In this document: positions 11,937 to 60,604 of the stretch, piece by piece
Position numbering within the stretch: position 1 is the first letter of the stretch
How the letters are laid out: every line of letters begins with the position of its first letter
NCBI GenBank assembly: GCA_963737065.1
Contig: CAVTRC010000001.1
Span: 2,208,001 to 2,272,000, forward strand
Reading direction: 5' to 3'
DNA from: Candidatus Eremiobacteria bacterium
GTDB taxonomy: Bacteria; Vulcanimicrobiota; Vulcanimicrobiia; Vulcanimicrobiales; Vulcanimicrobiaceae
DNA: 64,000 nucleotides
The notes under the pieces: model-generated
What the model was told of the DNA's origin: nothing
Databases searched by the model: none
Seen by the model: the letters and a program-made list of their open reading frames with translations, nothing else
Made by a program: the position numbers and the translations under genes

Positions 11937-13104
11937 GATAACGAAACTCCCATTCGATGAAGCCATCGATCTCGGCCGGCTGCGAAAGCGAACGAGTGAA
12001 AAGTGGCGGCATTATCCCGACGACGTCCTGCCGGTCTTTGTCGCCGAGACCGATTTTCCGCTTGCCGACCCGATCGCGGAGCGGCTGCGCGCGGCAATTG
12101 ATAACGGCGACCTCGGCTATGCGGTTCCGCTCGGGTTGGGTGAAGCGTACGCATCGTTCGCGCGAGAACGGTACGCGATGGAGGTCGACCCGAGCGATGT
12201 CCAAGCAGTTCCGGAAGTGATGGTCGGCGTCGCAGAGATTCTGCGCGCAATGACGGCAGCAGGCGGATACGGTCACGCGGTCATCATTAACTCGCCGGTC
12301 TATCCGCCGTTCTTCTCGACGATAGAAGAAGTCGGATGGACGATCGCCGATGCGCCGCTTCGTCGCGACGGCGACCGCTTCACGCTCGACTTCGATGCGG
12401 TTGAAACGCGGATGCAAGGTGGTGCGCGCGTCATGCTGTTGTGCAGCCCGCACAATCCGGTCGGGCGGGTCTATACGAGAGATGAGTTGACGTCGCTCGC
12501 GTCGCTCGCACAACGGTACGGCGCGATCGTACTCAGCGACGAGATTCACGCACCGCTCGTCTTACCCGGCGCGCAGTTCACGCCGTTTGCCGCGATTGCG
12601 AATGAATACGGTGTAACGTGCATCACGTTGACGTCAGCATCAAAAGGTTGGAACACGGCCGGCCTGAAATGCGCGATCGCCGTTGCGTCGGACGATTCGT
12701 CGCGTGAAATCATGCAACGCCTGCCGGCGGTCATGGCTGAACGAAGCGGTCATCTAGGGATCCACGCAACGATCGCCGCGTTCACCGAAGCAACTGCCTA
12801 CCTCGACGCCGTCGTCGCACATCTCAACGGCGTGCGCGCACAACTGCGCGGTATCTTCGACCAGCATGGACTTCACGACATCCGTTTCACACCACCCGAA
12901 GGCGGCTACCTTGCCTGGCTCGATTGCAGCGCACTCGGCGTCGACGATCCCGCCGCAACATTTTTCAAACGCGGCAAGGTCGCGCTCTACCCGGGCTCAG
13001 CGTTCAGCCAATCGTACACGCAATGGGCGCGTTTCAACTTTGCCACATCAATCGCAGTCGTAGAAGAAGCGGCAAAGAGGATGGCCAGAGCCCTGTCATC
13101 CTGA
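11935..13104 (+). CDS. MalY/PatB-family PLP enzyme (cystathionine beta-lyase-like)
   Basis: SEKW..YPDDVLPVFVAETDF, CSPHNPVG, SDEIH, SASKGWNTAGLK, GYLAWLD. Confidence 0.9.
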   Translation: MITKLPFDEAIDLGRLRKRTSEKWRHYPDDVLPVFVAETDFPLADPIAERLRAAIDNGDLGYAVPLGLGEAYASFARERYAMEVDPSDVQAVPEVMVGVAEILRAMTAAGGYGHAVIINSPVYPPFFSTIEEVGWTIADAPLRRDGDRFTLDFDAVETRMQGGARVMLLCSPHNPVGRVYTRDELTSLASLAQRYGAIVLSDEIHAPLVLPGAQFTPFAAIANEYGVTCITLTSASKGWNTAGLKCAIAVASDDSSREIMQRLPAVMAERSGHLGIHATIAAFTEATAYLDAVVAHLNGVRAQLRGIFDQHGLHDIRFTPPEGGYLAWLDCSALGVDDPAATFFKRGKVALYPGSAFSQSYTQWARFNFATSIAVVEEAAKRMARALSS

Positions 13105-13376
13105 GCTTGTCGAAGGACCTCGCTCGCAAATCCATCGCGTTGCGCAACCGAGCACGAGTCTAGAGCCCTGTCATCCTGAGCTTGTCGAAGGACCTCGCTC
13201 GCAAGTCCATCGCGTTGCGCAACGGGCACGTGTCCAGAGCCCTGTCATCCTGAGCTTGTCGAAGGACCTCGCTCGCGAGCCATCGCGTCGCGCAACCGAG
13301 CACGAGTCTAGAGCCCTGTCATCCTGAGCTTGTCGAAGGACCTCGCTCGCAAGCCATCGCGTCGCGATCGCGCAAC
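13087..13376. repeat. Tandem array of four 74-75 bp REP-like units
   Basis: Units start at 13087, 13162, 13236, 13310; each begins AGAGCCCTGTCATCCTGAGCTTGTCGAAGGACCTCGCTCGC followed by a near-identical tail. Confidence 0.95.
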
Positions 13377-24118: not shown

Positions 24119-24310
24119 TTGGCGTGGTTCGACTGGCGGCGGCACCGTTCGGCTCGGGGGCGTCTGATTTTTGCGCCCAGACAGGATGTCTGTTACAAAA
24201 CTTGTTCCGCGCAAAAATCAGCCGAGCGAAAAAATCACACGAAGTGATGTTTTCGCGTCCCCCAAAAGGAACCGTCGTATCGGCGCATGAGCCGCGCCAG
24301 TAGCCGCCAA
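24119..24310 (+). repeat. Dispersed structured element, copy A
   Basis: Core GGGGGCG-TGATTTTTGCG-CAGAC(AGGAT)GTCTG-...CGCAAAAATCA-GCGAAAA..TTTTCGC-CCCCC is shared with the 28540 and 35064 copies. Confidence 0.85.
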
Positions 24311-24967
24311 TCAGCGTTTGGGCTTGTTCTTGAGCGCATCGCGGCGTCGAGCTTCCATCTCCTGAAGCTCCAGCATCATCACATCGACAACGGTTTCCGC
24401 TTCAACCGGGGCCGCCAAGGTGTCTTTGTCTTCACGCGGACGGCCTGCCGGAGCCGTGCCGACGTGCGCATCGAGCACGGCGTCTTGCGCGTGCGTCTTG
24501 CGCAAGAACTGCGCGTAGGTCAGCGCCGCCCTCGCATTCGCGTCGGGTGCTTTTTCGATATTGAACACCGCTTCGTTGAAGTCGCCGGCGGGTTGTTTCA
24601 CCGCGTTTGGTGCTACTCGCGCGTTCGATTGAATCGTTACACCGTTGTAGACGCGGGCGCCGCTGCCGATCGCGCAGCCCTTTTGTAGCGTAGCTCCGGC
24701 GACGAACGCATGCGGTCCGATCATGCAGCGGTCGCCGATGGTGACCGGAAACTGCAACGCGCGTCCACCGCTCGATTTCACGACCGCGTGCTCCATGACG
24801 ACGCAATCCGATCCGATCGTTACGGGCGCGCCCTCCGCCGTGATGATCGCACCGTGCAAGACGGCGCAGCCCGCCCCGATCGTGACATCGCCGCTCACCG
24901 TTGCGCTCGGCGCGACGTAGGCGCTCGCATGAATCTTCGGCTTCTTCGTTCCGCTTGACAGAATCAT
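24311..24967 (-). CDS. Gamma-carbonic-anhydrase/hexapeptide-repeat (PaaY-like) protein
   Basis: PKIHASAYVAPSATVSGDVTIG hexapeptide repeats. Confidence 0.82.
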   Translation of the reverse strand: MILSSGTKKPKIHASAYVAPSATVSGDVTIGAGCAVLHGAIITAEGAPVTIGSDCVVMEHAVVKSSGGRALQFPVTIGDRCMIGPHAFVAGATLQKGCAIGSGARVYNGVTIQSNARVAPNAVKQPAGDFNEAVFNIEKAPDANARAALTYAQFLRKTHAQDAVLDAHVGTAPAGRPREDKDTLAAPVEAETVVDVMMLELQEMEARRRDALKNKPKR

Positions 24968-25115
24968 AGGAGCGGTGTCCGCGCGCGAACGTCCGATCTC
25001 CTGGACGAAAGCGAGCTTACTCTAAGTAGCTTATGATGGGTCTTATGGCCCAAGGACCGTTGGGCAAAGCATGGTAAGGTAGAGCTGCCGCGTAGGCTCT
25101 TTGAGGAACCGACAC

Positions 25116-25676
25116 ATGTCCCTTGACTTCCATACTGCTATCACGCCGTCTAAAGACATCGTGTTAAAACGACGTGCTTTCAGCTCCGTTGTGTTAGTGA
25201 GCGAACAGCTCACTATCGAGTGTGCGCACCCGGGCGCGCTCGAACTCCTTTCCAAAAAACTCGGAATGCCGGCCGAATCTCTCGACCGCTTTCCCCTTCC
25301 GATCGAACGTCAATTGCGCGATGCCGTGCGACGCGTCGACGCGAGCGGACGCGATATCGTAATCGAACCCGTCCCGTCGCTCTTGATTCGCGTCTCGCGG
25401 TTACGCGGCGCGGACGGTCACGCCGTTACGGCACTGCTCGTCGAAGAGCGCACCGTTCGCGATGCGGCTAAGCGCGCGCGGCAAGAATATCGCCTCACCA
25501 ATCGCGAGAGCGAAGTGTTGCGCCTGGTGCTGCGCGGAAAATCGGGCGAGCAGATCGCGCGACACATGTGCATCGCTGAAACGACCGTTGCCGACTACAT
25601 CAAAGCGCTGCTACGAAAGACGTTTTCGAAGAATCGCGCCGAGATGATCGCGCGCATTTGCGACGAGACGTTTTAG
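25116..25676 (+). CDS. LuxR-type HTH transcriptional regulator
   Basis: LTNRESEVLRLVLRGKS..QIA...IAETTV..Y...LLRK C-terminal HTH. Confidence 0.85.
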   Translation: MSLDFHTAITPSKDIVLKRRAFSSVVLVSEQLTIECAHPGALELLSKKLGMPAESLDRFPLPIERQLRDAVRRVDASGRDIVIEPVPSLLIRVSRLRGADGHAVTALLVEERTVRDAAKRARQEYRLTNRESEVLRLVLRGKSGEQIARHMCIAETTVADYIKALLRKTFSKNRAEMIARICDETF

Positions 25677-26690
25677 GTCGTGTAGTCGGGAATCACATCT
25701 TCCGACGTACGATACCCCTCCAGGTAAATGCGCCGGATGATCGATTCCAAATCGGGTTCTTCCAGCGTGACGTCCTGGAGTCTATAACGCTCGCTCGCCT
25801 CGCGGATTAAGAGATCCGCTCGTTGTACGATTTCGGTCGAAGCGGAAGCGCGCGATTGTCCCATCGCATTCTTCGAGCTCGGCGCCCGGCAGGTGCGGTA
25901 TCGCGATACGGTTTTCGAATCGAAGCACGAGGCGGCGGAATCGGCCGTACTCCGTCTTGATTCGCTCGACATCGCCGTCGTAGATGATCGTTCCGTGATC
26001 GATCAGCACGATGCGGCGGCACAACCGCTCGACGTCCGCGAGATCGTGCGTCGTGAGAATGATCGTCGTGCCGCGCTCCGCATTGATTCGTGCGATGAAT
26101 TCGCGAATCGCTTCTTTTGCCACGACGTCGAGCCCAATCGTTGGTTCATCGAGGTAGACGATCTTCGGATCGTGCAGCAACGCTGCGGCGAAGTCGCCGC
26201 GCATGCGTTGTCCGAGCGAGAGCTGACGAACCGGCGTGCGCAAGAAGTCGTCCATTTGCAGCAGCTGAATGAATTCATCGAGGTTGCGCTTGTAGGCCGT
26301 TTGCGGGATCCCATAGATCGCGCGTAACAACTCGAAGGACTCGATCAGCGGCAGATCCCAGTAGAGCTGGCTTCGCTGTCCGAACACGACGCCGATATTG
26401 CGAGCGTTCTCTTTCCGGCGTTCGTACGGAATGAGCCCCGCAACATCGATCGTCCCGGACGTCGGAACCAAAATGCCGGTTAGCATCTTGATCGTCGTCG
26501 ATTTTCCCGCGCCGTTTGGTCCGATGTATCCGACCAACTCGCCCGCTTCGAGGGACATCGACACGCGATCGACCGCCACGCGTTCCTCATACGTGTGCGA
26601 GAAGAGCGTGCGGATCGCGCCGAGCGCTCCGGGCGTACGTCGAACGCTGCGGAACACTTTTCGCAAGTCGCGGGTCTCGATGATCGCCAT
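25673..26690 (-). CDS. ABC exporter ATP-binding protein (frameshift near 25830)
   Basis: GPNGAGKST, FGQRSQL, LSLGQRMR, LDEPTIGLD; C-terminal EEPDLESIIRRIY is in a second frame. Confidence 0.9.
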
Positions 26691-26708
26691 CGCTAAACTT
26701 CTTTCGCT

Positions 26709-27314
26709 GTGATCGTCACGATCTCCAACAAATACGGATCCGGTGCCGTAGACATCGCTGCGCGCGCCGCCGCGCAGCTCGGATATACGGTTGTAGACCG
26801 TCAGCTGCCGGTCGTCGTTGCAAAGCGGATGCGGATTAGCCGTAGCGTCGCGCAGGAAGCCGAAGAATCGGGCCGTTCGCTCGGCTCGCGCCTGCTCACC
26901 AGCCTCGAACTCGCAACGCCGGAAGTCGTTGCGGAGAAGTTCGGCGAGACGTTCGATGAATCGTTGTTGCGAGAGGTGCAGCGCGCGGTGCGCGACTATG
27001 CTGCGCGCGGCAACTGTATCATCGTCGGGCGCGCCGCATCCGTGATTCTCGGGCGGCGTCCGGACGTGCTGCGCGTCTATATGTTTGCTCCGCGCGAGTG
27101 GCGCATCGAGCGCCTCGTGCAAACGCTCGGCGTCGATGAGAAAGCGGCAAGCGCCGAAGTCGATCGAATGGATCGCGCGCGTCGCGCGCATTTGCGCGAT
27201 TGGTACAACGTCGACATGGGATCATCGGAGCTCGTCGATCTCGCGATCGACACATCGACATTCGGCGAAGAAGCCTCCGCAAAGCTAATCGTCGCGGCGG
27301 TGCATGCGCGATAG
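26709..27314 (+). CDS. Cytidylate kinase-like family protein
   Basis: IVTISNKYGSG, CIIVGRAA, RVYMFAPREWRI, DLAIDTS. Confidence 0.85.
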   Translation: MIVTISNKYGSGAVDIAARAAAQLGYTVVDRQLPVVVAKRMRISRSVAQEAEESGRSLGSRLLTSLELATPEVVAEKFGETFDESLLREVQRAVRDYAARGNCIIVGRAASVILGRRPDVLRVYMFAPREWRIERLVQTLGVDEKAASAEVDRMDRARRAHLRDWYNVDMGSSELVDLAIDTSTFGEEASAKLIVAAVHAR

Positions 27315-28533
27315 CGGCGCCCGTACGATCCTCGCGCCGCTGCGCTTTCGCGATTTTCGTCTGCTTTGGATCGGGTTGATGGTTTCGAATCTCGGCACGT
27401 GGATGCAGTTCACCGCCATGGGATTCTTCGTGTCGCAACTCGCGGGCTCGCCGCATCGTGCGGCGCTCTATCTTGGGATCATCGGCGGCGCCCGCGCCGT
27501 TCCGGTGATGCTGCTGTCGCCGGTCGCGGGCGTCATCGCGGATACGCAGCCGCGTCGGCGCGTGCTCGTCATGACAAATGTAACGATGTCGCTCGCCGCC
27601 CTGGCATTAGCGGTGCTCGCAACGATTCATCACTTGAGCATGATCGGGCTCGTCGTGATCTCCGCGGTGAACGCGGCTGCAAACGCGTTCGATTCGCCGG
27701 TGCGGCAAAGTTGGACGCCGCATCTCGTGGATCGTCCGCTGGTCGGCAATGCCATCGGCCTCTCGTCCGTCGCATTCAACGCTCCGGCCGTTATCGGTCC
27801 CGCCATTGCAGGCGTGCTGATCGTCTGGGTCGGTGTCGCGGGCTCGTTTTACGTCAATGCGGTCGCAACGCTCGCGGTCGTCGTCGCGATCATGATGATG
27901 GCGCCCTCGCCGCCGTCCGGAGCAACGCGCGAGCCGATGCTCGAATCGATTCGCACGGGCTTACACTTTCTCGCAAACCACGCAATCCTGCGATGGATCA
28001 TTCTCGTCTTCATCGTAACGGCGATCCTCGTGCGTCCCTACAGTCAGCTGATCCCCGCATTTATCGTTAACACGCTCAACGGTGACGCACGAGCGTTAGG
28101 CTGGACCGTCGCGGCGGTCGGCATCGGCGGCTTCGGCGGCGCACTCGTCACCGCAGCCTTCGCCGGCCGCGAACGCCGGTCGACACAATGGGTGATCGCC
28201 GGATCGCTAATGTCGGCCGGCGTGCTCGCGCTAGGGTTCATCTGGAACATCGGTTTTACGATCCCCGTTTTCTTCGCAATCGGCCTCGGCACACTGGCGT
28301 TCCTCGGAGCCTCGAACACGCTCATCCAAACGCTATCGCCCGACGACGTGCGCGGCCGCGCAATATCTGTCTACACGATGGTAGCGGTCGGCATCGTCCC
28401 CGGTGGCTCGCTCGTTCTCGGCGCCATCGCCGCCGTAATCGGCCTGCACCTCACGTTCGCGATAGCCGGTGCGACCTGTCTCCTCATAGTCCTCAGCGTA
28501 TATGTATTCCGCCCCATCATTCGCACCGTATAA
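27304..28533 (+). CDS. MFS transporter
   Basis: FRLLWIG..VSNLGTWMQ, GVIAD..PRRR, IGPAIAG, about 12 TM. Confidence 0.92.
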   Translation: MRDSGARTILAPLRFRDFRLLWIGLMVSNLGTWMQFTAMGFFVSQLAGSPHRAALYLGIIGGARAVPVMLLSPVAGVIADTQPRRRVLVMTNVTMSLAALALAVLATIHHLSMIGLVVISAVNAAANAFDSPVRQSWTPHLVDRPLVGNAIGLSSVAFNAPAVIGPAIAGVLIVWVGVAGSFYVNAVATLAVVVAIMMMAPSPPSGATREPMLESIRTGLHFLANHAILRWIILVFIVTAILVRPYSQLIPAFIVNTLNGDARALGWTVAAVGIGGFGGALVTAAFAGRERRSTQWVIAGSLMSAGVLALGFIWNIGFTIPVFFAIGLGTLAFLGASNTLIQTLSPDDVRGRAISVYTMVAVGIVPGGSLVLGAIAAVIGLHLTFAIAGATCLLIVLSVYVFRPIIRTV

Positions 28534-28539
28534 CAGACG

Positions 28540-28736
28540 GGTTTGGCGTGTTGTGAATCTGCCCCAGAGTCCTTGGGCTCGGTTCCGGGGTTTGGGATTT
28601 TTGCGCCCACACAGGACGTGTGTTTCAGAACTTGTTCTGCGCAAAAATCGCGGAAGCGAAAAATCACACGAAGTGATTTTTCAGCGGCCCCGGAACCGAC
28701 CCCAAGAGCTCTGGGCACATTCACAACACGCAAACC
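28540..28736 (+). repeat. Dispersed structured element, copy B
   Basis: Same core as copy A, enclosed by ~50 bp inverted arms GGTTTGGCGTGTTGTGAAT... / ...ATTCACAACACGCAAACC. Confidence 0.9.
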
Positions 28737-28750
28737 AAGGCCCGCGCAAC

Positions 28751-28779
28751 AAAAAAGCGAGCCGCATGGTGCGGCTCGC
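28751..28779 (-). terminator. Intrinsic terminator downstream of the basic-protein gene
   Basis: Hairpin GCGAGCCGCA-TGG-TGCGGCTCGC preceded by A6 (U tract on the minus strand). Confidence 0.75.
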
Positions 28780-28806
28780 AAATGAGGCGTAAAAAACGCC
28801 GGTAAG

Positions 28807-29157
28807 TTAAGCTGCTGCTTTCTTCCGGCGCGATGATTTACGGCGAGTAGTCTTGCGAGCCGAAGCCTTACGCGTCGATTTGCGGGCGCTCGACTTGCGC
28901 GTGCTCTTCTTGCGCGAGGTTTTCTTACGGCCTGCGGTTTTTTTGCGTGCGCCGGCGGTCTTCTTGCGTCCGGCGGCGCTCTTCTTACGTCCGGCAGTGC
29001 TCTTCTTGCGTCCGCCTGCAGACTTCTTCCGAGAAGTCTTGCGGCGCGTCGTCGTCGCTTTCTTACGCGTACTCTTGCGGCCGGCTGATTTACGGCGCGG
29101 AGCCGCTTTTTTCGCAGCAGGTTTCGCCGCCGCTTTCTTTCTCCGTTTGACTGCCAT
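28807..29157 (-). CDS. Histone H1/Hc2-like Lys/Arg-rich protein
   Basis: GAGAGGA RBS; 116 aa with no acidic residue; repeated RKK(S/T)xxG units; own terminator. Confidence 0.8.
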   Translation of the reverse strand: MAVKRRKKAAAKPAAKKAAPRRKSAGRKSTRKKATTTRRKTSRKKSAGGRKKSTAGRKKSAAGRKKTAGARKKTAGRKKTSRKKSTRKSSARKSTRKASARKTTRRKSSRRKKAAA

Positions 29158-29233
29158 GTGCGTGGAGTCGTCCTCTCTCTGGTAGTTAAGCAACCAGGGT
29201 TGTTGCCTTCCTTATACACAATATCGACCGTCA

Positions 29234-30028
29234 ATGCAAGTTTTGGTACATGACGACGTCCGAATCGATACGCGCATTGACGGCTCCGGCGATGAAGCGG
29301 TCGTGCTAATTCATGGTTTTCCGCTCGCGAAAGAAATCTGGAATGCGCAGATTGAGATGCTCGCGCGCGCGCATCGCGTCGTCGCCGTCGACTTGCGCGG
29401 TATGGGCGGATCGAGTGTTGTCGCGGGGCCGTATTTGATGGAAACGCTCGCGGGCGACGTCGCCGCAGTGATGGATCACTTCTCGATCGATCGCGCGACG
29501 ATCGTCGGACATTCACTCGGCGGGTACGTTTCGCTCGCGTTTGCGCGCATGTATGTTGAACGCGTCGCGCGTCTCGCACTCATCTGTAGCCGCGTCATCG
29601 CCGACACGTCGCCGATCGCGAACGGCCGTAACGACCTCGCGTCGCGATTGGAAACAAGCGGTTCGATCTCGGAGGTTCTCGAGAAAAACGTGCCCGCGCT
29701 TTTCGCTCCGAATACATTGGAAAACCGGCCCGAACTCGTGCGACACGCCCGAAAAATTGCAGAAAGCAACACGGCGCGCGGACTCGCCGCTATGCTGCGC
29801 GGCATGGCGGTTCGGAGCTCCTCCGAGGACATCGCGCCCGAGCTCGGGATGCCCGTTCTGGCCGTCGGCGGCGGCGCGGATCCCGTCGTCCCGCATGAAG
29901 AAACCGAGCGAATTGGACGCCTTTTTCCGAATGTGCATGTAGAATGGATGCCGGCGTCAGGCCACCTTCCGATGATGGAAGAACCGGAGCGCTTAGCGTT
30001 GGTGCTCGACGCGTTTACCGGCGGCTGA
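29234..30028 (+). CDS. Alpha/beta fold hydrolase
   Basis: IHGFP, DLRGMG, GHSLGG nucleophile elbow, GHLPMME. Confidence 0.92.
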   Translation: MQVLVHDDVRIDTRIDGSGDEAVVLIHGFPLAKEIWNAQIEMLARAHRVVAVDLRGMGGSSVVAGPYLMETLAGDVAAVMDHFSIDRATIVGHSLGGYVSLAFARMYVERVARLALICSRVIADTSPIANGRNDLASRLETSGSISEVLEKNVPALFAPNTLENRPELVRHARKIAESNTARGLAAMLRGMAVRSSSEDIAPELGMPVLAVGGGADPVVPHEETERIGRLFPNVHVEWMPASGHLPMMEEPERLALVLDAFTGG

Positions 30029-30209
30029 CCGCGACGTCCCGGCGGCGGCGGCGGACGAGGTTATAGAGGAAGAGACCGCCGACGACCACGCCGGCGACAA
30101 GCGCTGCGACAACGACCACCTTCAGCACGACGACGAGCAGCAACAATCCGGCTAACGCCCCGGCGATGATGAGCGTCAGACGGATGAACGTGGCGAGCAG
30201 CGGATTCAT
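30015..30209 (-). CDS. Small membrane protein
   Basis: MNPLLATFIRL..., long hydrophobic stretch then RRRRR; GAGG upstream. Confidence 0.65.
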   Translation of the reverse strand: MNPLLATFIRLTLIIAGALAGLLLLVVVLKVVVVAALVAGVVVGGLFLYNLVRRRRRDVAVSRR

Positions 30210-30278
30210 GGAGTACCTCTGGACGGTCGTTGGAGTTCTCACCGTAATCTACCGATATTGATCGTGGAGGTTTCACGG

Positions 30279-30437
30279 ATGGATCTAAGCGGGATCGCGA
30301 CCAGCCTAGCGATGACGAGCGTCGCCCAAAGCGTCGACGTCGGCGTTTTGAAGGCGGTTCAAAACCTCGACGCGGCGAGCAGTGCGATGATGTTCGCATC
30401 GATCGGAGTCGGTACCGGCATCGACGCGTTTGCGTAG
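30279..30437 (+). CDS. YjfB-like putative motility-associated small protein (not on ORF track)
   Basis: GGAGG RBS; MDLSGIATSLAMTSVAQSVDVGVLKAVQ...GTGIDAFA, 52 aa. Confidence 0.7.
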   Translation: MDLSGIATSLAMTSVAQSVDVGVLKAVQNLDAASSAMMFASIGVGTGIDAFA

Positions 30438-30496
30438 TAGGCACGAACGACGCGTTCGGAGGATGCCTTCGCCCCTATAGCAGAAGACGCAGCCGC

Positions 30497-31240
30497 ATGC
30501 AGCGTCTTCTTTCTTTGGTTGCGGTGCTGTGCATCGCATTTTCTGCCTCGCCGGTAACCGCTTCGGCGGATCAGCCGGCTGCACAACGACATCTCGTGTA
30601 CGCCTTCGATGTCGGCATTCAAAACGACAGTCACAGCACCGATGCCGCGGTTCAAGGCACCGGTCAGGGAAACGGTGGAACCGTCACGGGTACAGGTGAT
30701 ACGCAGTATCTCGGCACGGGTTCCGACAAGGGTCAGATCATCGTCGACGTGCAAGGCGTCGAGCAGGATGGCGGACTCGTCGTGAACGTTGCCGAGAAGG
30801 CGCAGAACTATCGTACGGCCGCTCCGGTGACGTGCGTGGTCTATGCCAACACGAATGTCCTCTGCGGTACCGGCACGGTGAATCCGGAAGAAATGAGCGT
30901 GCTGCGCACGCTCTCGCCGCACTTCTTCGATCCGAGCGCGCTCGATGCAAAAAAGCATTGGCACGAGGGAAACGACGCCGCGGGTATCGGCATCGACTAC
31001 ACCGTTGCTGCGATGAACGGTGGTATCGTGACGATCAACGCGGAGCGTCAGGAGAAGTTTCAGGGGTCCACGCGCGGTTCAACGCAATCCACGGCGAAGT
31101 ACACGTACGACATGAATAAACTCATGCCGACGGCGATTTCCGAGTACACGACGATTCGCGAAGAAACCGGCCCGGGCCAATATTCAAACATTACGATTGA
31201 CTTGAAAGCGAATCTCGCGTCGGATACTGGAAAAGGCTAA
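30497..31240 (+). CDS. Secreted hypothetical protein
   Basis: Signal peptide ending TASA; 247 aa; host-like codon usage. Confidence 0.75.
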   Translation: MQRLLSLVAVLCIAFSASPVTASADQPAAQRHLVYAFDVGIQNDSHSTDAAVQGTGQGNGGTVTGTGDTQYLGTGSDKGQIIVDVQGVEQDGGLVVNVAEKAQNYRTAAPVTCVVYANTNVLCGTGTVNPEEMSVLRTLSPHFFDPSALDAKKHWHEGNDAAGIGIDYTVAAMNGGIVTINAERQEKFQGSTRGSTQSTAKYTYDMNKLMPTAISEYTTIREETGPGQYSNITIDLKANLASDTGKG

Positions 31241-31291
31241 CCTCTTGGAGGTGTTGACGACGACGTAAGCCGAACGAATGTTCGGTTCCTC

Positions 31292-33974
31292 ATGCCGGCT
31301 TTTGACGCGCTGCATCCTGATGTCGCACGGTGGTGCGAAGCTCATCTCGTCGATCCGACGCCGCCGCAGCGCGACGCCATCGCGCCTGGAATCGAGCGCC
31401 GCAACCTCCTCATCTCCTCGCCGACGGGTACCGGGAAAACGCTCGCCGCATTCCTTCCCGTGATCTCGCGGCTCGCGCACGCGCGCGATCGCGATGAATT
31501 ATTTGCGCGGACCTACGCACTCTACATTTCGCCGTTACGCGCACTCGGCTACGACGTCGAGCACAATGTGCGCCGGCCGATGCGCGAGATGCATCTGCTG
31601 GAGCGGCCGAATACCGAACGTGCGACGCTGCGTCGAGGCCGCATCCGCGAAAAATTTGTGCGGACCGGCGTGCGAACGGGCGATACGCCGCAGCAAGAGC
31701 GGCGCCTCATGCTTTCCCGGCCGCCGCACATTCTGCTAACGACACCCGAATCGCTCGCCGTGATACTCGCGATGGAAAGCTACCGGCGCACGTTGCGTCT
31801 CGTCGAAACCGTTGTGATCGATGAAGTGCATGCGCTCGCCGGAAACAAACGCGGCGCGCAGCTATCGCTCGTGCTCGAATCGCTGGAGACGCTCGTGGAA
31901 CAGCCGTTCAACCGCGTCGGCTTGTCGGCGACGATCTCACCGCTCGATCGTGTCGCCCAGTTCGTTGCGGGAGCGCAACGGCCGTGCGACGTCATCGACC
32001 ATCGCGGGTTGCGCAGTATTCGCATCGACGTGGTTGCGCCGTTCGCAGGTGCAATGGCGCCGCTCGAAACGGTCGCGCGAACGGCGTTGAAACTCTCCAA
32101 CGACGTGCACACGTCGCTCGTGTTCACCAACGTGCGCAGCCAGGCGGAACGCGTCGCGCACGTGATGTCCGAAGCGATGGAAGAGATGGAAGCGCCGGCG
32201 GCTTCTCCAGCCGAGGTTGCGGAGCCGAGGGTGGAGCACGTGTTAGAACAAACGCGGCCGCCGAAGAACCTTGGTTCTTTGGGCGTCCACCACTCGGCAT
32301 TGGAACGGAGCGTTCGCCATCGCGTCGAAGCGGCGTTGCGCGCCGGACATTTGCATACGGTCGTCTGCAGTTCTAGTCTGGAACTCGGCGTCGACATCGG
32401 CTTCATCGATCGCGTGCTTCTCGTCGGCGGCGCGCGCGGAATGACGTCGACGCTGCAGCGCGTCGGACGTGCCGGACATCGTCCGGGTGCAATAGCGCAA
32501 GGAACGATCATCGCGCAGGATCGCGACGACATCATCGAAGCGGCGGCGACAAAGCGCTGCATCGCCGACGGCATCATCGACGAGGTCGCAATCCCGCAAG
32601 CGCCGCTCGATGTGCTGGCGCAATGGATGGTGGCCTCCGTCTGTTACGACAAGCGGTTGACGATCGACGCCGTTCTCGCGACGGCGCGACGTGCCTATTC
32701 GTATACCTCGCTGACGCGTGACGACGTGATCCGCTGCGCGCAGTATCTCTCGGGCGGCGGAGCCGGCGGTGATGAAGCGCACGTGCGCCGCCTGGGATTC
32801 GACGGCGAAGCGATCTTCGGATTAGGCCGCGACGTCTGTTCGGCGTTTTTCGAAAACGTCGGCACGATCCCCGACGAATCGTCGGTTGTCGTACGCGTTG
32901 ATGGTTCGGACATCGGCCGCGTGGAAGAGGGGTTCGTGAACGAACTGCGCGTCGGCGACGTCTTCGTACTCAATGGCCGCACGTTGCGCGTGAAAGAATT
33001 GAGCGCCTACGTCTGTCGCGGCGGAACCCTTCGCCGCGCGCCCGACCGTTCCGCAGTGGAGTTCGCATCTCAAAGGCATTCCGCCGCCGCTTGCGCGTGA
33101 AATCAACCGTTTGCGTGTCGGCATTGCGGAACGTCTGCGCCGTCGCGACGCCGGCGGCGCTTTAGATTTTCTGCGCGTTCGCTACGCGCTCGACGGTCCG
33201 GAGGCGGCGCACGTCGTCCGGTACATCGCACAGCAGCAAGCGCTTTCGGCCGTGCCCGGCGAGGGGCGGCCGGTAATCGAGATCTATCGCATGGACGCGC
33301 GACAAACCGCGGTGTTTCACACGTGCGCGGGCCGCCGCGTGAACGAAACGCTCGCGCGCATCGTCGGTGCGCGCGTATTCCGTATCGCGAACGCGAATTC
33401 ACAGATCACAACCGACGACAACGGCTTCTTGTTAACGCTGCCCGCCGGCAAAACGCTGCCCGATGCCGCATGGGCGGAGATGCTGCGCGTCGACCGTTTC
33501 AACCGCGACCTCATGGATGGTTTGCGCAGTTCGCACCTGCTGCGCAATCACTTCCGCTACGTCGCAAACACGGGATTGCTGGTCTTGCGGCGCGCGGCCG
33601 GGCGCGCGCTGCGGCGGGGAGCCCAAAGCTGGAACAGTCAAAAAATCTTCGATCGTCTTTATCGCACCGACCGCAGCTTTCCATTACTGCGTGAAACGAT
33701 CCGCGTCGTGACGCGCGACCTGCTCGACGCGCCCTCGGCACGCGAGTATCTGGAATCGATCGTCGAGGAGCCACGCGTCCTGCATCCGATCGCCGCATCG
33801 CCGTTTACGTTCGGCATCATTACGTCGTCATTCGGCGATTCGGTCGTGTTGGATGACCGCGCGACCATGGTGGAAGCACTGCACGACCGGGTCTTGCAAC
33901 TCCTCGGCGAACGCGCCGCGGCCGGCGACGAGCCGGTCGACGAACCGCAGCTGTCGCTGACGTGGGGAACATGA
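31292..33974 (+). CDS. lhr: Lhr-core DEAD/DEAH helicase (frameshift near 33010)
   Basis: SPTGTGKT, YISPLRAL, RTGDTP, TTPESL, DEVH, GLSAT, HHSAL, SSLELGVD, QRVGRAGH, LDVLAQ, GTIPD; C-terminal part in ORF 33111-33974. Confidence 0.88.
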
Positions 33975-34744
33975 ACGCACCGCAGCCGTCGGCCGAATCC
34001 TTTGAGCTTCTCCACGGCGCAATCGCATTGCCGCGCGGTGTACTGTGGCTTTCGTGCTCGAAAGCGATCGTGGCGGCCGACGCACACCTCGGATACGAAG
34101 ACGTCATCGGCGGCGCATTGCCGTTGTGGAGCACTACGGAGACCACGCAAACGCTGCTGGTGGCGGCACGTCGCATGCAGGCAGAAGAGATCATCTTCCT
34201 CGGTGACATCATACACTCGACTCGTATGAGTGCCGGCGCTGCACACGCAGTTGACGGTGCGCTCGAACTATTGCGTAAGGAGTTCCTCGTCACGCTCGTT
34301 GCGGGGAACCACGAGGGACGAAGCCGCGGCGTCGGGGTATTGGGCGAAACGCAAGAAGCAGTTGAACGCGACGGGTGGCTCTTACTTCACGGGAACGAAC
34401 CGGTACGCGGACGCCGCTGCATCATCGGCCATCTGCATCCGAGTCTTCCGCTCGATGACGGCTACAGCATCCCCGTCTTTCTGGCCGCAGCTCATCTCAT
34501 CGTCGTTCCGGCGCTTACGCCGTACTCGAGTGGGCTGAACGTCCTCTCCGCCGCGTGCACGGAAGCGTTGCGCGAGTTCGGTGAAACGAGCGACCTGATC
34601 GTCGTTGCAGCGACGGATGACCGCATCTATCCGTTCGGCAACCGTCAAGATCTCCAACGCATCACGCTACAAACGGCTCGCTACGATGAGTCGGCGCCAT
34701 TCACGACAGCGCCACGAAGGGCGTCACGGTTGCGTCATTGGTGA
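33971..34744 (+). CDS. Lhr-associated metallophosphoesterase (PdeM/MPE-like)
   Basis: DAHLG, LGDIIH, GNHE, HG, GHLHP motifs; ATGA overlap with lhr. Confidence 0.82.
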   Translation: MNAPQPSAESFELLHGAIALPRGVLWLSCSKAIVAADAHLGYEDVIGGALPLWSTTETTQTLLVAARRMQAEEIIFLGDIIHSTRMSAGAAHAVDGALELLRKEFLVTLVAGNHEGRSRGVGVLGETQEAVERDGWLLLHGNEPVRGRRCIIGHLHPSLPLDDGYSIPVFLAAAHLIVVPALTPYSSGLNVLSAACTEALREFGETSDLIVVAATDDRIYPFGNRQDLQRITLQTARYDESAPFTTAPRRASRLRHW

Positions 34745-34758
34745 GCGTTAACGAACGT

Positions 34759-35081
34759 ATGGATAGGCAGCGAAAAAATTGACGCCGTCCGCGCCCTGTT
34801 CAAAGCCTGAAGAGTTCACGTTTACGAGTCCCTACGATGACCACATCGACAAAGCGGCGTACTTCAAACGTTGCTGGCCCAACAGCGAGCAAATCTTACA
34901 ACAAACGATTGAGTCAATCTCTCTCGCCGACGATGATGTGTTCGTCATATATCGCTGCAAAACGCGCGACGGCAAAGCCTTTCGAAATACAGAACTCCAC
35001 CACGTCGAGGCCGGCAAAATCAGAAGCGTCGAAGTGTTCTTCGGAAGAACCGACGAGGTTAAACCGACGATGGTTGTATGA
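34759..35081 (+). pseudogene. SnoaL/NTF2-like protein with disrupted 5' end
   Basis: FTFTSPYDDHIDKAAYFKRCWP, FRNTE, VEVFFG are intact; N-terminal VRALFKA is in another frame and ends in TGA. Confidence 0.65.
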
Positions 35082-35258
35082 ATGAGGTGGGGCCTCACCT
35101 CGGTACGGGGGCGTCTGATTTTTGCGACCACACAGGAGGTGTGTTTCAAAACTTGTTCCGCGCAAAAATCAGTCGAGCGCAAAAACTACACGGACGTCGT
35201 TTTTGCGCGTCCCCCGAACCGGGGTGAGGTCCCACCTCATTCATACAATCATCGACGG
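35064..35258 (+). repeat. Dispersed structured element, copy C
   Basis: Same core, enclosed by ~50 bp inverted arms CGATGGTTGTATGAATGAGGTGGG... / ...CCCACCTCATTCATACAATCATCG. Confidence 0.9.
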
Positions 35259-46964: not shown

Positions 46965-48373
46965 TCAGCTGCTTGGAGCGAAGCGGATACCGTCGACAAG
47001 GTTCGATTTCTTGTTGATCCACAAATAAAACTTGATGGTCGCGCTCGCAAATTCGACGCGATAGACGTACGCGTCGTCGTCGCCCATCTCGAACTTTTGC
47101 TTAAAGATCACGTTCTTCAACGCGCCGAGGGTCGCCAGTTGCTCTCCGATCTGTTGCTGCTGTTTTTGCGAAATCGTCTGACGAACGAGCGGCGAAAGCT
47201 GATCCGGCGGGAGCGAACCTTTGAGCGCCGCGTCAAGCAGCAGCTTCATGCGCGCCGTTACGCCCAAGTTTTCGCCGGCGCCCGGCTTCATCGCCGCGAG
47301 CGCGACTTGCGGGAACAACGTCTCGTAGATCTTTGTCGCGAGCGCTGCCGTAGCGGCCCCGTCTTCGTTTTCGAGCACGATCACGTCGACGCCGTCTTGC
47401 GGGAACGTGACGTTACTCGACGATGATCCGAACGTGCCGCCGTTATGCCAGACGCGTTCCCGCCCGTCGACCGTGTCGATTTGCCAGCCGAATCCATAGC
47501 CGTCGGAGGCGCCGTTCGCGAGTTTGCCGGGTGTCGTCATCAGCGCGAAGTCGGCCGGCGAGATAATTCTGTCCATCGTGCAAGGCGATATCCCACTTCG
47601 CGAGATCCCCGACGGTCGATACGATATCGCCGGCCGCGGATGCCCATGCATCGAAAAGCGGCTGCGCGGGCGAGACGCGTTGGCTATTTGTCATCCCGCG
47701 CCAGTACGGCGTAGCGAAATCGCTGAGCGAGGCTTCGTCGGCGATCGTGGCGCTATGCGTCATACCGGCCGGCGCAAAGAGATGCGTGCGGATGTACTGC
47801 CCATATGATTGCCCCGACACCACTTCAATCACGCGTCCGAGCGCAACGTAATTCGTGTTGCTGTACTCCCATTTCGTCCCCGGTTTGAAATGCAGCGGCT
47901 GCGCGGCAATCAGCCCTTCGATCTTTTCAAAACTTCCGGGCTGCCGCGCAATCGAGACGAAGTGATTGACGTCGGTATAATTGGGAAGTCCCGTGACTTG
48001 ATTCAGCAGCTGACGAAGCGTGATCTCGCGCGCGTGCGGAAACGAAGGAACGAATTTCGCCAGGCTGTCGTCGAGCGAAAGCTTCGCGTGTTCTTTCAGT
48101 TGTAGAATTGCCGCCGCAGTGAACTGCTTCGTGACCGATCCCACTTCGAAATCGGTATCGGCGTCCACCGGCATATCCGAGGCGATGTTCCGCAACCCGA
48201 ATCCCTTCGCGTAGATGATACGTCCGTTCGCGAACGACGGCGACGGCGCCGCCGGGCGCGCGTTGCGCATCGATCGCTTGGCCGGCGACCATGCTGAGAC
48301 GGTCATCGAGCGCAAGCGGCTGGGGCGACGCTGCCGGGTTAGCGACCGCTAAGAGCAGCGCAAGAACGAACAT
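46965..48373 (-). CDS. Secreted serine hydrolase (class C beta-lactamase-like), two apparent frameshifts
   Basis: Signal peptide from ATG 48373 (GGAGGAG RBS); GSVTKQFTA, YSNTNY, HNGG spread over three ORFs. Confidence 0.82.
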
Positions 48374-49606
48374 ACTCCTCCAATGCGTGTACGGTTGCAT
48401 CGATTTCCGCCGGCGTGTTGTAATGCGCCGCGCCGACACGGACGACGCCCGCGGCTTCATTTAAGCCGAGCGAACGAACGGGTTCCAGCGCAAAATTATT
48501 TCCGCTCCAGACGAAGATGTTGCGTCGTGCCATCGCGCGCGCGATGTCGTCCGTCGACGCAGCGGGATGAACGAATGACACGGTCGGCACGCGATGCGCC
48601 GCCGACGCCGGTTCGGTAATGCCGAAGATAGACGTGCCCTCGATGCGCTGCAGCCCTTCAATCAATCGACGTGCGAGTTGCTGCTCCCACTGCACGGACG
48701 CTGCAAACGCGGCGCGGATCTTCGCGCGCGCGTCGCCGTAGGTACCAACTTGTTCGCCCAGCCATTCGTAATAGGCAATCGTCGCGCTCAGCGCAGCGAA
48801 GAGTTCGATCTGCGGCGTGCCCAAGTCGAAGCGCCACGGAAGTTCGTCGCTTGCCGGGCGAACTTTGTCCGTCTCGAGGTTTTCGAGCAGCGATTCGCGT
48901 CCGTACACGATCCCGAGGTGCGGGCCGAAGAATTTGTACGACGAACACGCGAGAAAGTCGCAGCCGAGTTCGGTGACGTCGATGAATCCGTGCGGTGCGA
49001 ACTGCACCGCATCGACATATGCAAGGGCGCCGGCGTCATGGATTCGTTCAACGAGCGCGCGTACGTCATTGATCGATCCGGTAAGATTGCTCGCATAGTT
49101 CAGCGCGACGATGCGCGTGCGTTCGGTGAGCACACGATCGAGCGCATGCGGTTCGATACGCCAAGAATCCGGTCATAGTCGAGCCATCGCACGGCGAGTC
49201 CGCGGTCGGCGGCCGCCGCAAGCCAAGGTGAGATGTTGCCGTCGTGATCCATGCGCGTCACGACGATCTCGTCGCCCGGCTTTAACCGTCGCACCAGCGC
49301 GCGCGCAATCCCAAATGTAAGCGCCGTCATGCTCGGCCCGACGATGATTTCGCGCGATGACGCTGCGCCGAGAAACTGCGCCATTCGCTCGCGCGCGTCT
49401 TCGGTCGTTTGCTCCGCGAGACGGCTCGTGACGAAGTAGCCGCCGAGATTGGCGTTCGTCTCGATCAGGGCGCGCGCAGTGGCGTCTGCCACGCGCTTGG
49501 GCACTTGCGTTCCGGCGGGATTATCCAGGTAAATTCGCGGCGTTCCGGCGTCCGTAATTGAAAGGGATGGAAACTGCTCGCGGATCCGTTCGACGGGAAA
49601 ACCCAT
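48339..49606 (-). CDS. Cysteine desulfurase-like class V PLP enzyme (frameshift near 49155)
   Basis: YLDNPAGTQVP, MDHDGN, ASNLTG, VDAVQFAPH, SSYKFFGPH, HYNT. Confidence 0.88.
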
Positions 49607-49948: not shown

Positions 49949-51623
49949 TTATGACCCGCTTATGCCCTCGCGTTCGAGCATTTCTTTGTAAATGCGATCC
50001 ACGTCGGCTAGCGTGTTGATTTGTGAAACGGGCTTATCGTCGCGGATGCGCACGATGCGCGGAAACCGAAGCGCGTATCCGCTTTCATGCAGATCGCTGC
50101 GCTGGACGACATCGAACGCCACTTCGAGCACGATCTTCGATTGCACGGCGATCGCGTAACCGCGCTTGCCGGTCTGGTGCTCCAGGAACCACGTCGTCAT
50201 TCCCGCGATCTCAACGTCCGTCAAACCGGAATATGCCTTTCCGATCGTCAGCAGGTTGCCTTCGTCGTCCTGTACGGCGAACGTATAGTCGGAGAGCACC
50301 TTCGCGCGGCGACCGTGACCCCATTCGACTGCGACAACCACCACGTCGAGGGTTGTCAACTCGCGTTTCAGCTTTAGCCACCACTTCCCGCGCCGGCCGG
50401 GAACGTACGGCGCGTCGACGCGTTTGAGCATCAGCCCCTCGTTGCCGCGCGCGCGTGCCGCTTCGAAGCGTTCGTTGATCGCTTCCGCGACGGCGTCATC
50501 ATCGATGCGCTCGAACTGCGCGAGCGCGGCCCGTTCGCTCGGCTCGAAGGCGCTCGCCAAGCGCGTACGGCGTTCGATCAACGGTTCGTCGATCAAGAAT
50601 TCATCGTCGATTGCGATCGCATCGAAAACGACGTATTGCAACGGAACGTCCTCCAGCAGCGATGGATCGATCTCCTTACGCTGCAGACGCGCTTGCAAGA
50701 TGCGAAAGGGCAGCGCTTTTCCGTCGCGCGATGCGATGATTTCGCCGTCGAGAATCATACGCCGCGACTGCATCGCGAGGCGCTTGCGCGATCTCCGGAT
50801 ACGACCGCGTTACATCGTTGAAATTGCGCGAGTATAAGGCAACGGTTCCGTCGTGAACGTGTGCCTGCGCCCGAATGCCGTCGAATTTATCCTCTGCGAT
50901 CCACGTTTGTCCCGCGAGCTCGCGATAGCGATCGCCGTACGGAATCGGCGAGGCGAGCATGAATCCGACCGGCGACCCGTACGCGACGTGAATTGCGTTC
51001 AGCCGTTTGTGTTTCGCTGCAACGGCAACTTCTCCGATGTCGCCCGAAGCCATCACCGCGCGATGAATCTCGCGATGCGTGCTCTCGAACGCCGAAGCGA
51101 TCGCGTCGTGAACGAGCCCTTCGCGCAATCCGATGCGCAAATCGCCGGTGATGATCTTGATGACGTACGTTGCTTCCAAGGCATCGGTGCAATCGCGAAG
51201 GATGCGCTCGAGAATTGCCTCACGCTTTCTGCCCGCGTTCTTCCCTGACTCATCGGCGATCTGCACGAAGAGCGCATCGAGGAACGACGGCGTGAGCGTC
51301 TCTTCGGAAAAGAGCATCAGATCGGCAGGGGGCCGCACGAGCGGCCCGAGCGCTGAACCTAAATCGCCCGTTTCGCGATAGCGCGCCGAAAGCGCCGCAT
51401 CGTCGAATCCCCACACGCGTTTGGCGACGGCAATGATCGCGCGACCGCCGAGATTCAAGTTGCGCTGGTCTCGCGCAGCGAAGGGGTTGCCGGTAAAGAA
51501 GCGTGCAGCGGCATGCAGATCCCCGTCGTCGAGTTCGCGCAGATACTCCGCGATCAGCGCGATCTTTTCGAGCTTGCCGCCGCGCGCCGCGACGGCGTTC
51601 GCGACATAGGCGAAGCGCCGCAT
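49949..51623 (-). CDS. ATP-dependent DNA ligase (LigB-like; frameshift near 50780)
   Basis: EDKFDGIRAQ (KxDG), LDGE, FD, EGLMLK, WLKLK, LRFPRIVRIRDDK. Confidence 0.9.
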
Positions 51624-60000: not shown

Positions 60001-60604
60001 AGCTGCGCGCGGCGGATTGCTCTTTCCGAAAGTTGCGTACGGGTATTTTCCTGCGGCGGGCGTCGGCAACGACGTGATCGTCTACGACCCGAACGATCGC
60101 TCGCGTGAAATCGCGCGCTTTCCGTTCACGCGCCAAATCGGCGGCGAACATCTGTGCCTCGCCGATTATTTGCGCGAGCCGCGCAGCGGCGAAGGCATCG
60201 ACGTCGTCGCGTTGCAAGTCGTCACGGTTGGTACGGTCGCCGCGCAACGTACGGAAGAACTACAGGCCAAGGGCGACTACAGCGAATCGTATTTCCTTCA
60301 CGGATTCTCCGTGCAATCGGCCGAAGCGCTCGCCGAATGGACGCACCACCGCATCCGCACCGAACTGCGGCTGGAACCGCAACGAGGCAAACGCTATTCG
60401 TGGGGTTACGGCGCGTGTCCCGATCTCTCGCAACACGAGATCGCGTTTGGTCTCCTCGAAGCCACGCAGCGCATCGGCGTCACGCTCACCGAAGCGTTCC
60501 AAATCATACCGGAACAATCGACAGCCGCAATCGTGATGCACCATCCGCGCGCCTCGTATTTCAACGCCGCCGCGGTGAGAGAAACCGCCGCCGCGGGAGT
60601 GTGA
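57086..60604 (+). CDS. metH: B12-dependent methionine synthase (several apparent frameshifts 58390-59290)
   Basis: DGAMGT, GLNCSTGP, GGCCGTTP, GERIN, DSTE, GVSNVSFG, GDVHDIGKN, GYGACPD, PEQST. Confidence 0.92.

Follow-up and report, generated by a model that had tools for sequence, protein, structure and literature searches.

What is the multi-stem intergenic element that recurs three times in a 64,000-nucleotide stretch of a Candidatus Eremiobacteria genome (contig CAVTRC010000001.1, positions 2,208,001 to 2,272,000 of the forward strand; this whole stretch is hereafter called the window)? A first-pass annotation, made from the letters of the window, noticed the three copies and suggested that they represent a genome-wide family, either of non-autonomous mobile hairpins or of structured RNA modules, which it could not assign to any family known to it. 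The Eremiobacterota (WPS-2) are an abundant phylum of soil and peat with one cultured species, and to our knowledge nothing is known of non-coding RNA or repeats in this phylum. In those parts of the literature that full-text search reaches, we found no paper on repeats of palindromic, hairpin or transposable type in this phylum, and a general search on palindromic covarying repeats, within the same limits, returned nothing matching. We report that the element belongs to a previously undescribed family of dispersed, structured intergenic hairpin repeats, confined to a single family of Eremiobacterota (Baltobacteraceae by record title). It is virtually certain that this family is real, structured and lineage-restricted. 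As for what the element does, we favor, at somewhat less than an even chance, a new dispersed structured RNA that would spread as whole units, present loops to CsrA and act as a barrier by means of its long stem.

A repeat search of the window returned one 93-nt family at 24149-24241, 28579-28671 and 35100-35192, all on the plus strand and 73-88% identical. An alignment of 14 copies from 7 genomes, in which RNAalifold found 41 pairs, 34 of them compensatory, was used to build a covariance model (R1). This model placed the cores of the three copies, here called A, B and C, at 24147-24268, 28577-28697 and 35098-35220, with 120.6-128.2 bits. The recurrence in a single orientation is therefore borne out by both searches. 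The fold that the first-pass annotation had drawn, with a G/C basal stem, a GATTTTTGCG/CGCAAAAATC stem carrying an inner hairpin, and a second hairpin, was recovered by RNAalifold, and the compensatory differences that it had listed between copies (CAGAC/GTCTG versus CACAC/GTGTG, and GCGAAAA/TTTTCGC versus GCGCAAAAAC/GTTTTTGCGC) are present in the sequence.

The conserved core is branched, measures about 122 nt and consists of a closing stem, P1, a P2 domain with two inner hairpins, P2a and P2b, and a further hairpin, P3. All 10 pairs of P1 covary. P2 contains a U-A run that is nearly invariant (47-49 of 49 sequences), and the pairs on either side of it covary. Within P2, P2a is a 5-bp hairpin with the loop AGGAU, and P2b is formed by 3 bp inside AACTTGTTC, a stretch that had been described as invariant. 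That stretch is itself a mini-hairpin with covariation, its pairs being C-G in 48 sequences, A-T in 42 and G-C in 6, and A-T in 48 and G-C in 1. The P2b loop is UU, UUU or UUC; the UU loop and its closing C-G pair read CUUG, a stable type of RNA tetraloop. The P3 loop has the motif CA(C/G)GAUG, and 11 of the 12 pairs of its helix have changed on both sides. Unpaired core positions and two loops are at least 90% conserved across about 40 genera.

We then measured the pairing in 51 distinct sequences fitted to R1 (alignment A3). Fitting to a model favors the structure, yet the margin over controls was large: standard pairs filled 96.2% of the 2037 cells, compared to 63.4% after shuffling and 36-52% when the 3' partner was slid, and the covariation score was 0.80, compared to 0.21 and 0.07-0.14, respectively. 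None of 500 shuffles reached the observed measures. Changes on both sides were seen in 37 of the 41 model pairs, so that the proposed covariation is upheld and the fold is a well-supported new one. A small open reading frame (ORF) in the core was considered and rejected, since a reading frame could accommodate neither the 1-nt indels (CTTGTT versus CTTCGTT) nor the compensatory pattern.

The three copies of the window belong to a wider family. In the genome of the window (G000; 3.08 Mb, two contigs, C1 and C2), BLAST found four full copies and one half copy, and copies were found by BLAST in 8 of 41 genomes, G000 included. BLAST undercounted the family, however, and the covariance model was needed. 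With R1, the count for G000 rose to 8 full copies, scoring 90-130 bits, and 2 partial ones. Of the partial copies, that at C1:820011-820077 has lost the whole P2 domain, and that at C2:235755-235835 is a 3' half. The former has a counterpart in another locus (L027:2272-2340); both short variants keep P1 and P3, and they resemble a clean deletion across the base of a hairpin. Three of the 8 full copies lie within 11 kb in the window, and these, together with a further copy, D, form one sequence subfamily.

Within the same bacterial family, R1 matched 78 of 151 genomes and 39 of 78 genera. In a sample of the phylum, it matched 39 of 70 genomes of this family and none of 80 genomes from 20 other families. 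In five genomes that were scored in full, there were 13, 13, 35, 37 and 38 copies, the highest numbers being those of G015 (37) and G024 (38). G162 is likewise rich in copies, and the complete genomes G010, G046 and G081 have none. Thus, the family is genome-wide, as had been proposed, although in G000 it is low in copy number rather than abundant. A motif scan of prokaryotes, with one genome per species, gave at least 112 stretches, 80 of which were submitted to R1. At 67 of these loci the match was at least 29 bits; 62 carry the record titles Eremiobacteraeota, Vulcanimicrobiota, Vulcanimicrobiales, Baltobacteraceae, Cybelea or Rubrimentiphilum, and the remaining five comprise three titled 'bacterium' or 'uncultured bacterium' and two from one metagenome-assembled genome titled Babeliales. 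Twelve of the 80 loci, from other phyla, gave no match, and one Limosilactobacillus locus gave a partial match of 20 bits. The tallies for the family include unpublished genomes (G041, G050, G073, G121, G130 and G154 in the element tally, and more in those of csrA, Y1 transposases and reverse transcriptases), and alignment A3 includes one sequence from such a genome (L046, from G121); the conclusions are independent of them.

The element could not be assigned to a known family, in agreement with the first-pass annotation. A search of the 64 kb of the window with 4227 Rfam families at the gathering threshold gave no match. In E-value mode only chance-level matches appeared, the best being a plant microRNA (miRNA) model that hit copy C on both strands with 46.8 and 44.5 bits, compared to a cut-off of 150. 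Carriage by phages was considered as well and rejected: seven pattern matches were found in viral contigs, and R1 confirmed none of them.

The imperfect pairs of the element are not shared equally by the two strands. In the orientation of the window copies, wobble pairs outnumbered A:C pairs by 84 to 16 overall. In the core there were 37 G:U and 8 A:C, as well as 48 G:A and 4 C:U, and among 84 mismatches in the outer arms 47 were G:T and 8 were A:C. A G:U pair becomes A:C on the complement, and one strand is therefore kept foldable. This one-strand bias excludes a purely double-stranded role, such as a cruciform or a protein operator, and fits RNA or one folded strand of DNA. We consider it likely that one strand is the selected form and, with less confidence, that this strand probably acts as RNA.

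Beyond P1, the hairpin continues into outer arms that are specific to each copy. In 53 copies the arms had a median length of 31 nt and reached up to 80 nt, with 1546 matches, 87 mismatches and 31 gaps, and whole units measured 126-279 nt. The copies of G000 with 70-nt flanks fold at -102 to -172 kcal/mol. Across 903 pairs of arms, no shared word exceeded 11 nt, a length reached solely within a trio of orthologous copies. The arms of the G000 copies had no match in the rest of that genome, which speaks against their having been copied from elsewhere in it. Orthologous copies were recognized by shared flanks (copy I of G000 with G001 and G002, copy D with G003, and G155 with G088). In the four such comparisons with both arms intact, the cores were 77-91% identical and the arms 56-75%, and indels in one arm were mirrored in the other; the fifth involves copy D, whose 5' arm is gone. 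Most simply, the hairpin would be inherited in its entirety, and now and then copied that way too, its arms being free in sequence but kept paired, mostly by way of G:U.

One copy, L049 of genome G157, departs from this pattern. Its 80-nt arms are units of another repeat, GTCATCCTGAG...TCGAAGGA, and it looks as if its core had been set in the center of an older palindrome. This second repeat family is also present in the window, where four tandem units of 74-75 nt containing CCTGTCATCCTGAGCTTGTCGAAGGACC occupy 13057-13353; an inverted pair of such units fills the sites of copies A and B in G002, and they form the arms of L049. In four other copies (L035, L039, L040 and L047), the 5' arms contain G-runs, among them TTGGGGTTGGGG and GGGTTGGGGGGTGGGTGGGG, with the potential to fold into G-quadruplexes.

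Whole units are gained or lost between species. The site of copy B is empty in G001, G003, G005 and G006 and in two metagenome contigs, both of which are distant from G000, while G002 carries the other repeat there. The genes that flank this site in the sister genomes are 74-82% identical in DNA. In G001 and G006, the stop codon of the major facilitator superfamily (MFS) gene directly abuts the conserved terminator of the next gene, and in G003 and G005 the two are separated by 18-38 nt of unrelated, non-palindromic sequence, so that about 200 nt of arms and core are wholly missing in all four. The site of copy A is empty in G001 and G005; G002 again has the other repeat, and G006 has a diverged look-alike. 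The site of copy C is empty in G003 and G005, both of which also lack the SnoaL-like ORF beside it. Empty sites, which the first-pass annotation had named as a thing to look for, thus exist for copies A and B in sister species, but they are too diverged for the insertion junction to be fixed to the base. Target duplications, named in the same place, were not found: among 48 copies there was no target-site duplication, direct repeat, conserved flank or terminal sequence. The choice originally offered, between a mobile hairpin and a structured RNA, therefore stands in both its members and falls as an alternative. The two are not exclusive, since presence and absence point to mobility and the strand-specific wobble to a single-stranded form, probably RNA.

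The three copies of the window illustrate these features to different degrees (folding energies were computed on stretches of 182-203 nt). In copy C, the whole hairpin unit spans 35064..35258 on the plus strand (R1, 128.2 bits; -130.3 kcal/mol) and consists of a 5' arm (35064-35101), the core (35098-35220) and a 3' arm (35221-35258); the repeat search recorded it as an inverted repeat (I1) with 48-nt arms that are 90% complementary. All parts of its core are on the plus strand. The 5' strand of P1, at 35102..35111, pairs with 35211-35220, and all 10 pairs have changed on both sides among the 51 sequences. The P2 domain follows at 35116..35171, its U5/A5 helix joining 35116-35126 with 35161-35171 and enclosing both P2a (35129-35143, with the loop AGGAG at 35134-35138) and the covarying mini-hairpin P2b (35150-35157). 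P3 lies at 35177..35208, with the loop ACGGAC at about 35190-35195, and shows the changes on both sides in 11 of 12 pairs mentioned above. The whole unit of copy B spans 28540..28736 (+; 120.6 bits; -120.2 kcal/mol), with a 5' arm at 28540-28580, the core at 28577-28697 and a 3' arm at 28698-28736; its arms, of 41 and 39 nt, have 36 matches, 2 mismatches and 4 gaps. Copies B and C thus extend outwards as long, copy-specific inverted repeats, which the first-pass annotation had missed, into units of about 195-200 nt. The outer stem of copy A is short and degenerate. Around its core of P1, P2 and P3 (24147..24268, +, 122.9 bits), imperfect pairing reaches out to about 24119-24300, only 4 perfect pairs are added beyond the model, and the 182-nt stretch folds at -83.0 kcal/mol.

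The gene context given for the three copies agrees with ORF and Pfam calls. Copies B and C lie between convergent genes, B between the MFS gene (+) and an ORF of Lys-rich repeats (-), C between the SnoaL-like ORF (+) and a NUDIX gene (-). Copy A lies between two co-oriented genes of the minus strand, for an ABC-2 membrane protein and a hexapeptide transferase. The Lys-rich ORF (28807-29193, -) is made of 21-nt repeats encoding seven residues, is rich in Lys, Arg and Ala, has no Pfam match and adjoins the MFS gene in sister genomes too. Elsewhere in the window, three genes are each split into two adjacent or overlapping ORFs: a class-V aminotransferase (48339-49606), an ATP-dependent DNA ligase (49949-51623) and a B12-dependent methionine synthase (57086-60604). 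These may be frameshifts or assembly errors and, if such errors are common, some of the mismatches and gaps in the arms may be errors too.

Across genomes, a rough gene caller based on GC3 called genes on both sides of 32 of 53 copies, of which 17 had convergent neighbors, 14 had co-oriented ones (7 per sense) and a single copy had divergent ones. A marked arrangement was seen where two copies stand within 1.5 kb of each other: in five genomes, 13 of 15 such pairs were oriented (-,+), with their 5' ends facing. Close pairs were noted in G076, G094, G162, G015, G088 and G223, and those of G088 and G223 are oriented likewise. Between the members of close pairs there are spacers or single ordinary genes, about 75-1100 nt long, and no transposases. 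These regularities are real, and may reflect either a rule of insertion or what a transcription unit of its own would require. The outer stems were also examined as intrinsic terminators; no T-run follows them, and at site B the canonical terminator of the neighboring gene is separate and stands beside the element.

No gene that could mobilize the element was found at its side. The absence of a mobilizer from the window holds: a Pfam scan of its 68 ORFs found no transposase, integrase, recombinase or RAYT. An all-against-all comparison of the ORFs within about 1.5 kb of copies from 43 sources returned orthologous neighborhoods only and no recurrent family. The Y1/HUH transposase domain (PF01797) had no match in G000 and occurred in 7 of the 151 family genomes; the element is missing from 6 of these 7. 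A RAYT or IS200 mobilizer is ruled out by this absence and distribution, and adjacency to HUH or RAYT genes, another lead of the first-pass annotation, found no support. Reverse transcriptases (RVT_1) occurred in 18 of the 151 genomes and in neither of the high-copy genomes G015 and G024; this distribution, together with the lack of a recurrent reverse-transcriptase neighbor, rules out a mobilizer of that kind or a link of the retron type. The sole reverse-transcriptase match of G000 (C1:1823877-1824272) is fragmentary and interrupted by two in-frame TGA codons.

The apical loops of the core offered a lead to the RNA-binding protein CsrA. Of 104 distinct copies, 100 have GGA in the P2a loop, mostly in the form ACAGGAUGU; for the P3 loop the count is 62 of 98 parsed copies. 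The consensus for CsrA from SELEX (selection of binding sequences in vitro) is RUACARGGAUGU, with GGA within a hairpin loop (PMC4347634). G000 has a csrA gene (91.9 bits), which stands in a fliW-csrA-flagellin cluster (L208, C1:233073-236228). In this cluster, the flagellin leader contains the hairpin GGGGACAGGACGTTCCCC, followed by a GGA-containing ribosome site, AUGGAGGA, and we read CTAAAGT-N15-CCGATAT in the leader as a putative sigma-28-like promoter. The same layout is known for Bacillus hag. The leader hairpin and the P2a hairpin of copy B have the same nine bases, ACAGGACGT, a loop flanked by its stem. A GGA leader hairpin was found in 8 of 12 relatives examined; in the remaining 4, csrA is not followed by a flagellin gene. 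Binding of CsrA by the loops of the element is a testable possibility, which we nevertheless regard as doubtful.

The reading that we favor is built from these observations. The active form would be one strand, always of the same polarity and most likely RNA transcribed through the 3' ends of genes. Its long stem may serve as a stable 3' structure, a barrier to exonucleases or to transcription, and its apical loops, CAGGAUG and CA(C/G)GAUG, might present GGA-type hairpins to a FliW-type CsrA. Whole units would be gained and lost between species in the manner of a non-autonomous mobile element. The data show that the copies form one family, with a common fold, a strand bias, paired arms specific to each copy and empty sites; we infer the RNA nature of the strand, the binding of CsrA, the barrier function and the way of moving, and several observations weigh against one or another of them. 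G:T disturbs folded single-stranded DNA, too, less than any other mismatch, and the strand bias can therefore not separate RNA from single-stranded DNA. In 27-32 of 53 copies, an antisense ORF stops within 25 nt of the 3' side of the element; a sense ORF ends within the same distance of the 5' side in no more than 12-14, so that read-through from neighbors would often yield the complement that bears A:C. Both neighbors of copy A are antisense to it, and promoter-like -10 and -35 words showed no positional enrichment upstream of the 5' arm in 48 copies. As for CsrA, GGA is missing from the P3 loop in 36 of 98 copies; csrA is present in 127 of the 151 family genomes, with or without the element, a near-universality that makes co-occurrence uninformative; and G000 has 59 loosely defined GGA hairpins, only 7 of them in elements, so that such hairpins are common and the resemblance of the loops alone is weak. 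Finally, the 5' arm is rich in G (G 41.5%, C 23.1%, T 21.7%, A 13.7%), with G exceeding C in 42 of 49 copies. The arms being complementary, the G-rich arm comes first on either strand. A general skew of 3' flanks, or one linked to transcription, was ruled out as the source, since the 3' flanks have 30.0% G and 30.3% C. It is possible that a C-rich arm emerging first would expose a loading site for Rho. Inheritance of the hairpin as a unit accounts for neither the G-rich 5' arm nor the borrowed arms of L049.

How far do other explanations account for the same facts? The element could be a mobile hairpin at the level of DNA, whose core would be recognized on one folded strand by a recombinase or transposase, as with attC or IS200/IS605, the RNA being incidental. 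The presence and absence of whole units between sister species, and the crowding of three of the 8 copies of G000, all of one subfamily, into 11 kb, are what such an element would leave behind, and a single recombinogenic strand of DNA would explain the G:T bias equally well. The (-,+) arrangement of 13 of 15 close pairs, the polarity towards the ends of neighboring genes and the arms of L049, where the core seems to have landed in the center of another palindromic repeat, fit as well. We nevertheless consider it unlikely. There is no target-site duplication, conserved terminus or recurrent neighboring gene family; Y1/HUH genes are absent from G000 and occur mostly in element-free genomes; reverse transcriptases are missing from G015 and G024; and none of the 7 viral-contig matches was confirmed. 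Furthermore, old orthologous arms of 30-80 bp have been kept paired, which is unexpected for a site needed only at transposition. A bolder reading is a self-spreading hairpin of RNA or DNA that would seed docking sites of CsrA type behind many unrelated genes, at their 3' ends, the copies together making up a distributed decoy or regulon in a lineage where CsrA is otherwise linked to FliW and flagellin; its copy-specific, G-rich-first stems would arise, or stay symmetrical, by hairpin-templated copying. We hold it to be improbable; its copying step would be one described for no bacterial repeat.

Each copy might instead be an independent gene for a small RNA (sRNA), with a promoter in the variable 5' spacer and with effects in trans, such as those of a CsrA sponge distributed over the genome. 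This would explain why the 3' side tolerates contact with the stop of a neighbor and the 5' side is usually roomier, and why the 5' ends of close pairs face each other across about 75-1100 nt, like divergent genes that share a promoter region. With copy A antisense to both neighbors, the favored strand needs transcription of its own, and most copies have one or two GGA loops. However, no promoter motif is conserved upstream, one lying beyond the conserved unit would be left behind when the unit moves, and we know of no sponge RNA in FliW-type CsrA systems, and we rate this reading, too, as improbable. The preference for intergenic sites between convergent gene ends and the great stability of the units (-102 to -172 kcal/mol with flanks) would also be expected of mere terminator-like palindromes, tolerated at gene ends and with a functionless core. 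Such palindromes should not, however, have unpaired core positions and two loops that are at least 90% conserved in about 40 genera, nor a U5/A5 run that stays nearly invariant beside covarying pairs; no U-tract follows the stem, and the gene at site B still has its own terminator beside the element. This makes tolerated palindromes a very improbable explanation. It is scarcely credible, finally, that the variable stems carry specificity and that the hairpins are precursors of small guide RNAs, for example in defense. A stem unique to each copy under a conserved tip, a shape like that of a microRNA precursor and the fact that the only near-matches in Rfam came from the plant miRNA model would suit that idea, but no arm matches elsewhere in G000, no protein gene is associated, the uniform G-rich bias (42 of 49 arms) is unexpected for captured foreign fragments, and orthologous arms diverge in ordinary fashion.

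Several known systems resemble the element in part. Repetitive extragenic palindromes (REPs), the interspersed mosaic elements that they form (BIMEs) and enterobacterial repetitive intergenic consensus (ERIC) sequences are likewise dispersed intergenic hairpins at the 3' ends of genes or between convergent genes, and are thought to stabilize mRNA or stop transcription. The copies of ERIC share their whole sequence. The element differs from REPs in its length of 126-279 nt, its 8-38 copies, a stem specific to each copy and a branched tip, and in lacking a boundary tag and RAYT/Y1 genes. REPs are described as 20-40 bp long, present in more than 100 copies and provided with a GTAG or CGTC tag and a RAYT gene (PMC2817692, PMC3733652). 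Miniature inverted-repeat transposable elements (MITEs) are similarly short, non-coding, foldable, present or absent between relatives and without a transposase of their own, but their terminal inverted repeats are conserved and they make target duplications, whereas the ends of the element are variable, and no duplication and no parent element were found. Terminal repeats, target duplications and known transposases all being absent, a unit that moved by itself would presumably do so in a way that has not been described.

The attC sites of integrons are defined by structure, are active as one folded strand and lie just past gene ends, antisense to the gene. Their base holds the conserved boxes and their tip varies, and they stand in cassette arrays beside an integrase. 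In the element, the tip is conserved and the base variable, and the copies lie in ordinary, non-cassette synteny that is common to relatives without copies; no integrase occurs among the 68 ORFs of the window, intI not having been searched for in the rest of G000. The structured RNAs of Rfam are comparable as multi-stem motifs backed by covariation, although no family matched. RNAs of the CsrB/RsmZ type also carry GGA in the loops of short hairpins, and the CAGGAUG of the element is close to the SELEX consensus. Known CsrA sponges are single genes with many GGA hairpins and their own regulated promoter and terminator, and belong to lineages without FliW. In contrast, the element has one or two GGA loops per unit, is dispersed, has no recognized promoter and occurs with a FliW-type csrA. 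Its design, a conserved branched tip on a stem free to vary in sequence yet kept almost perfectly paired, is unusual and, should CsrA bind its loops, the element would provide FliW-type CsrA with a first dispersed RNA partner.

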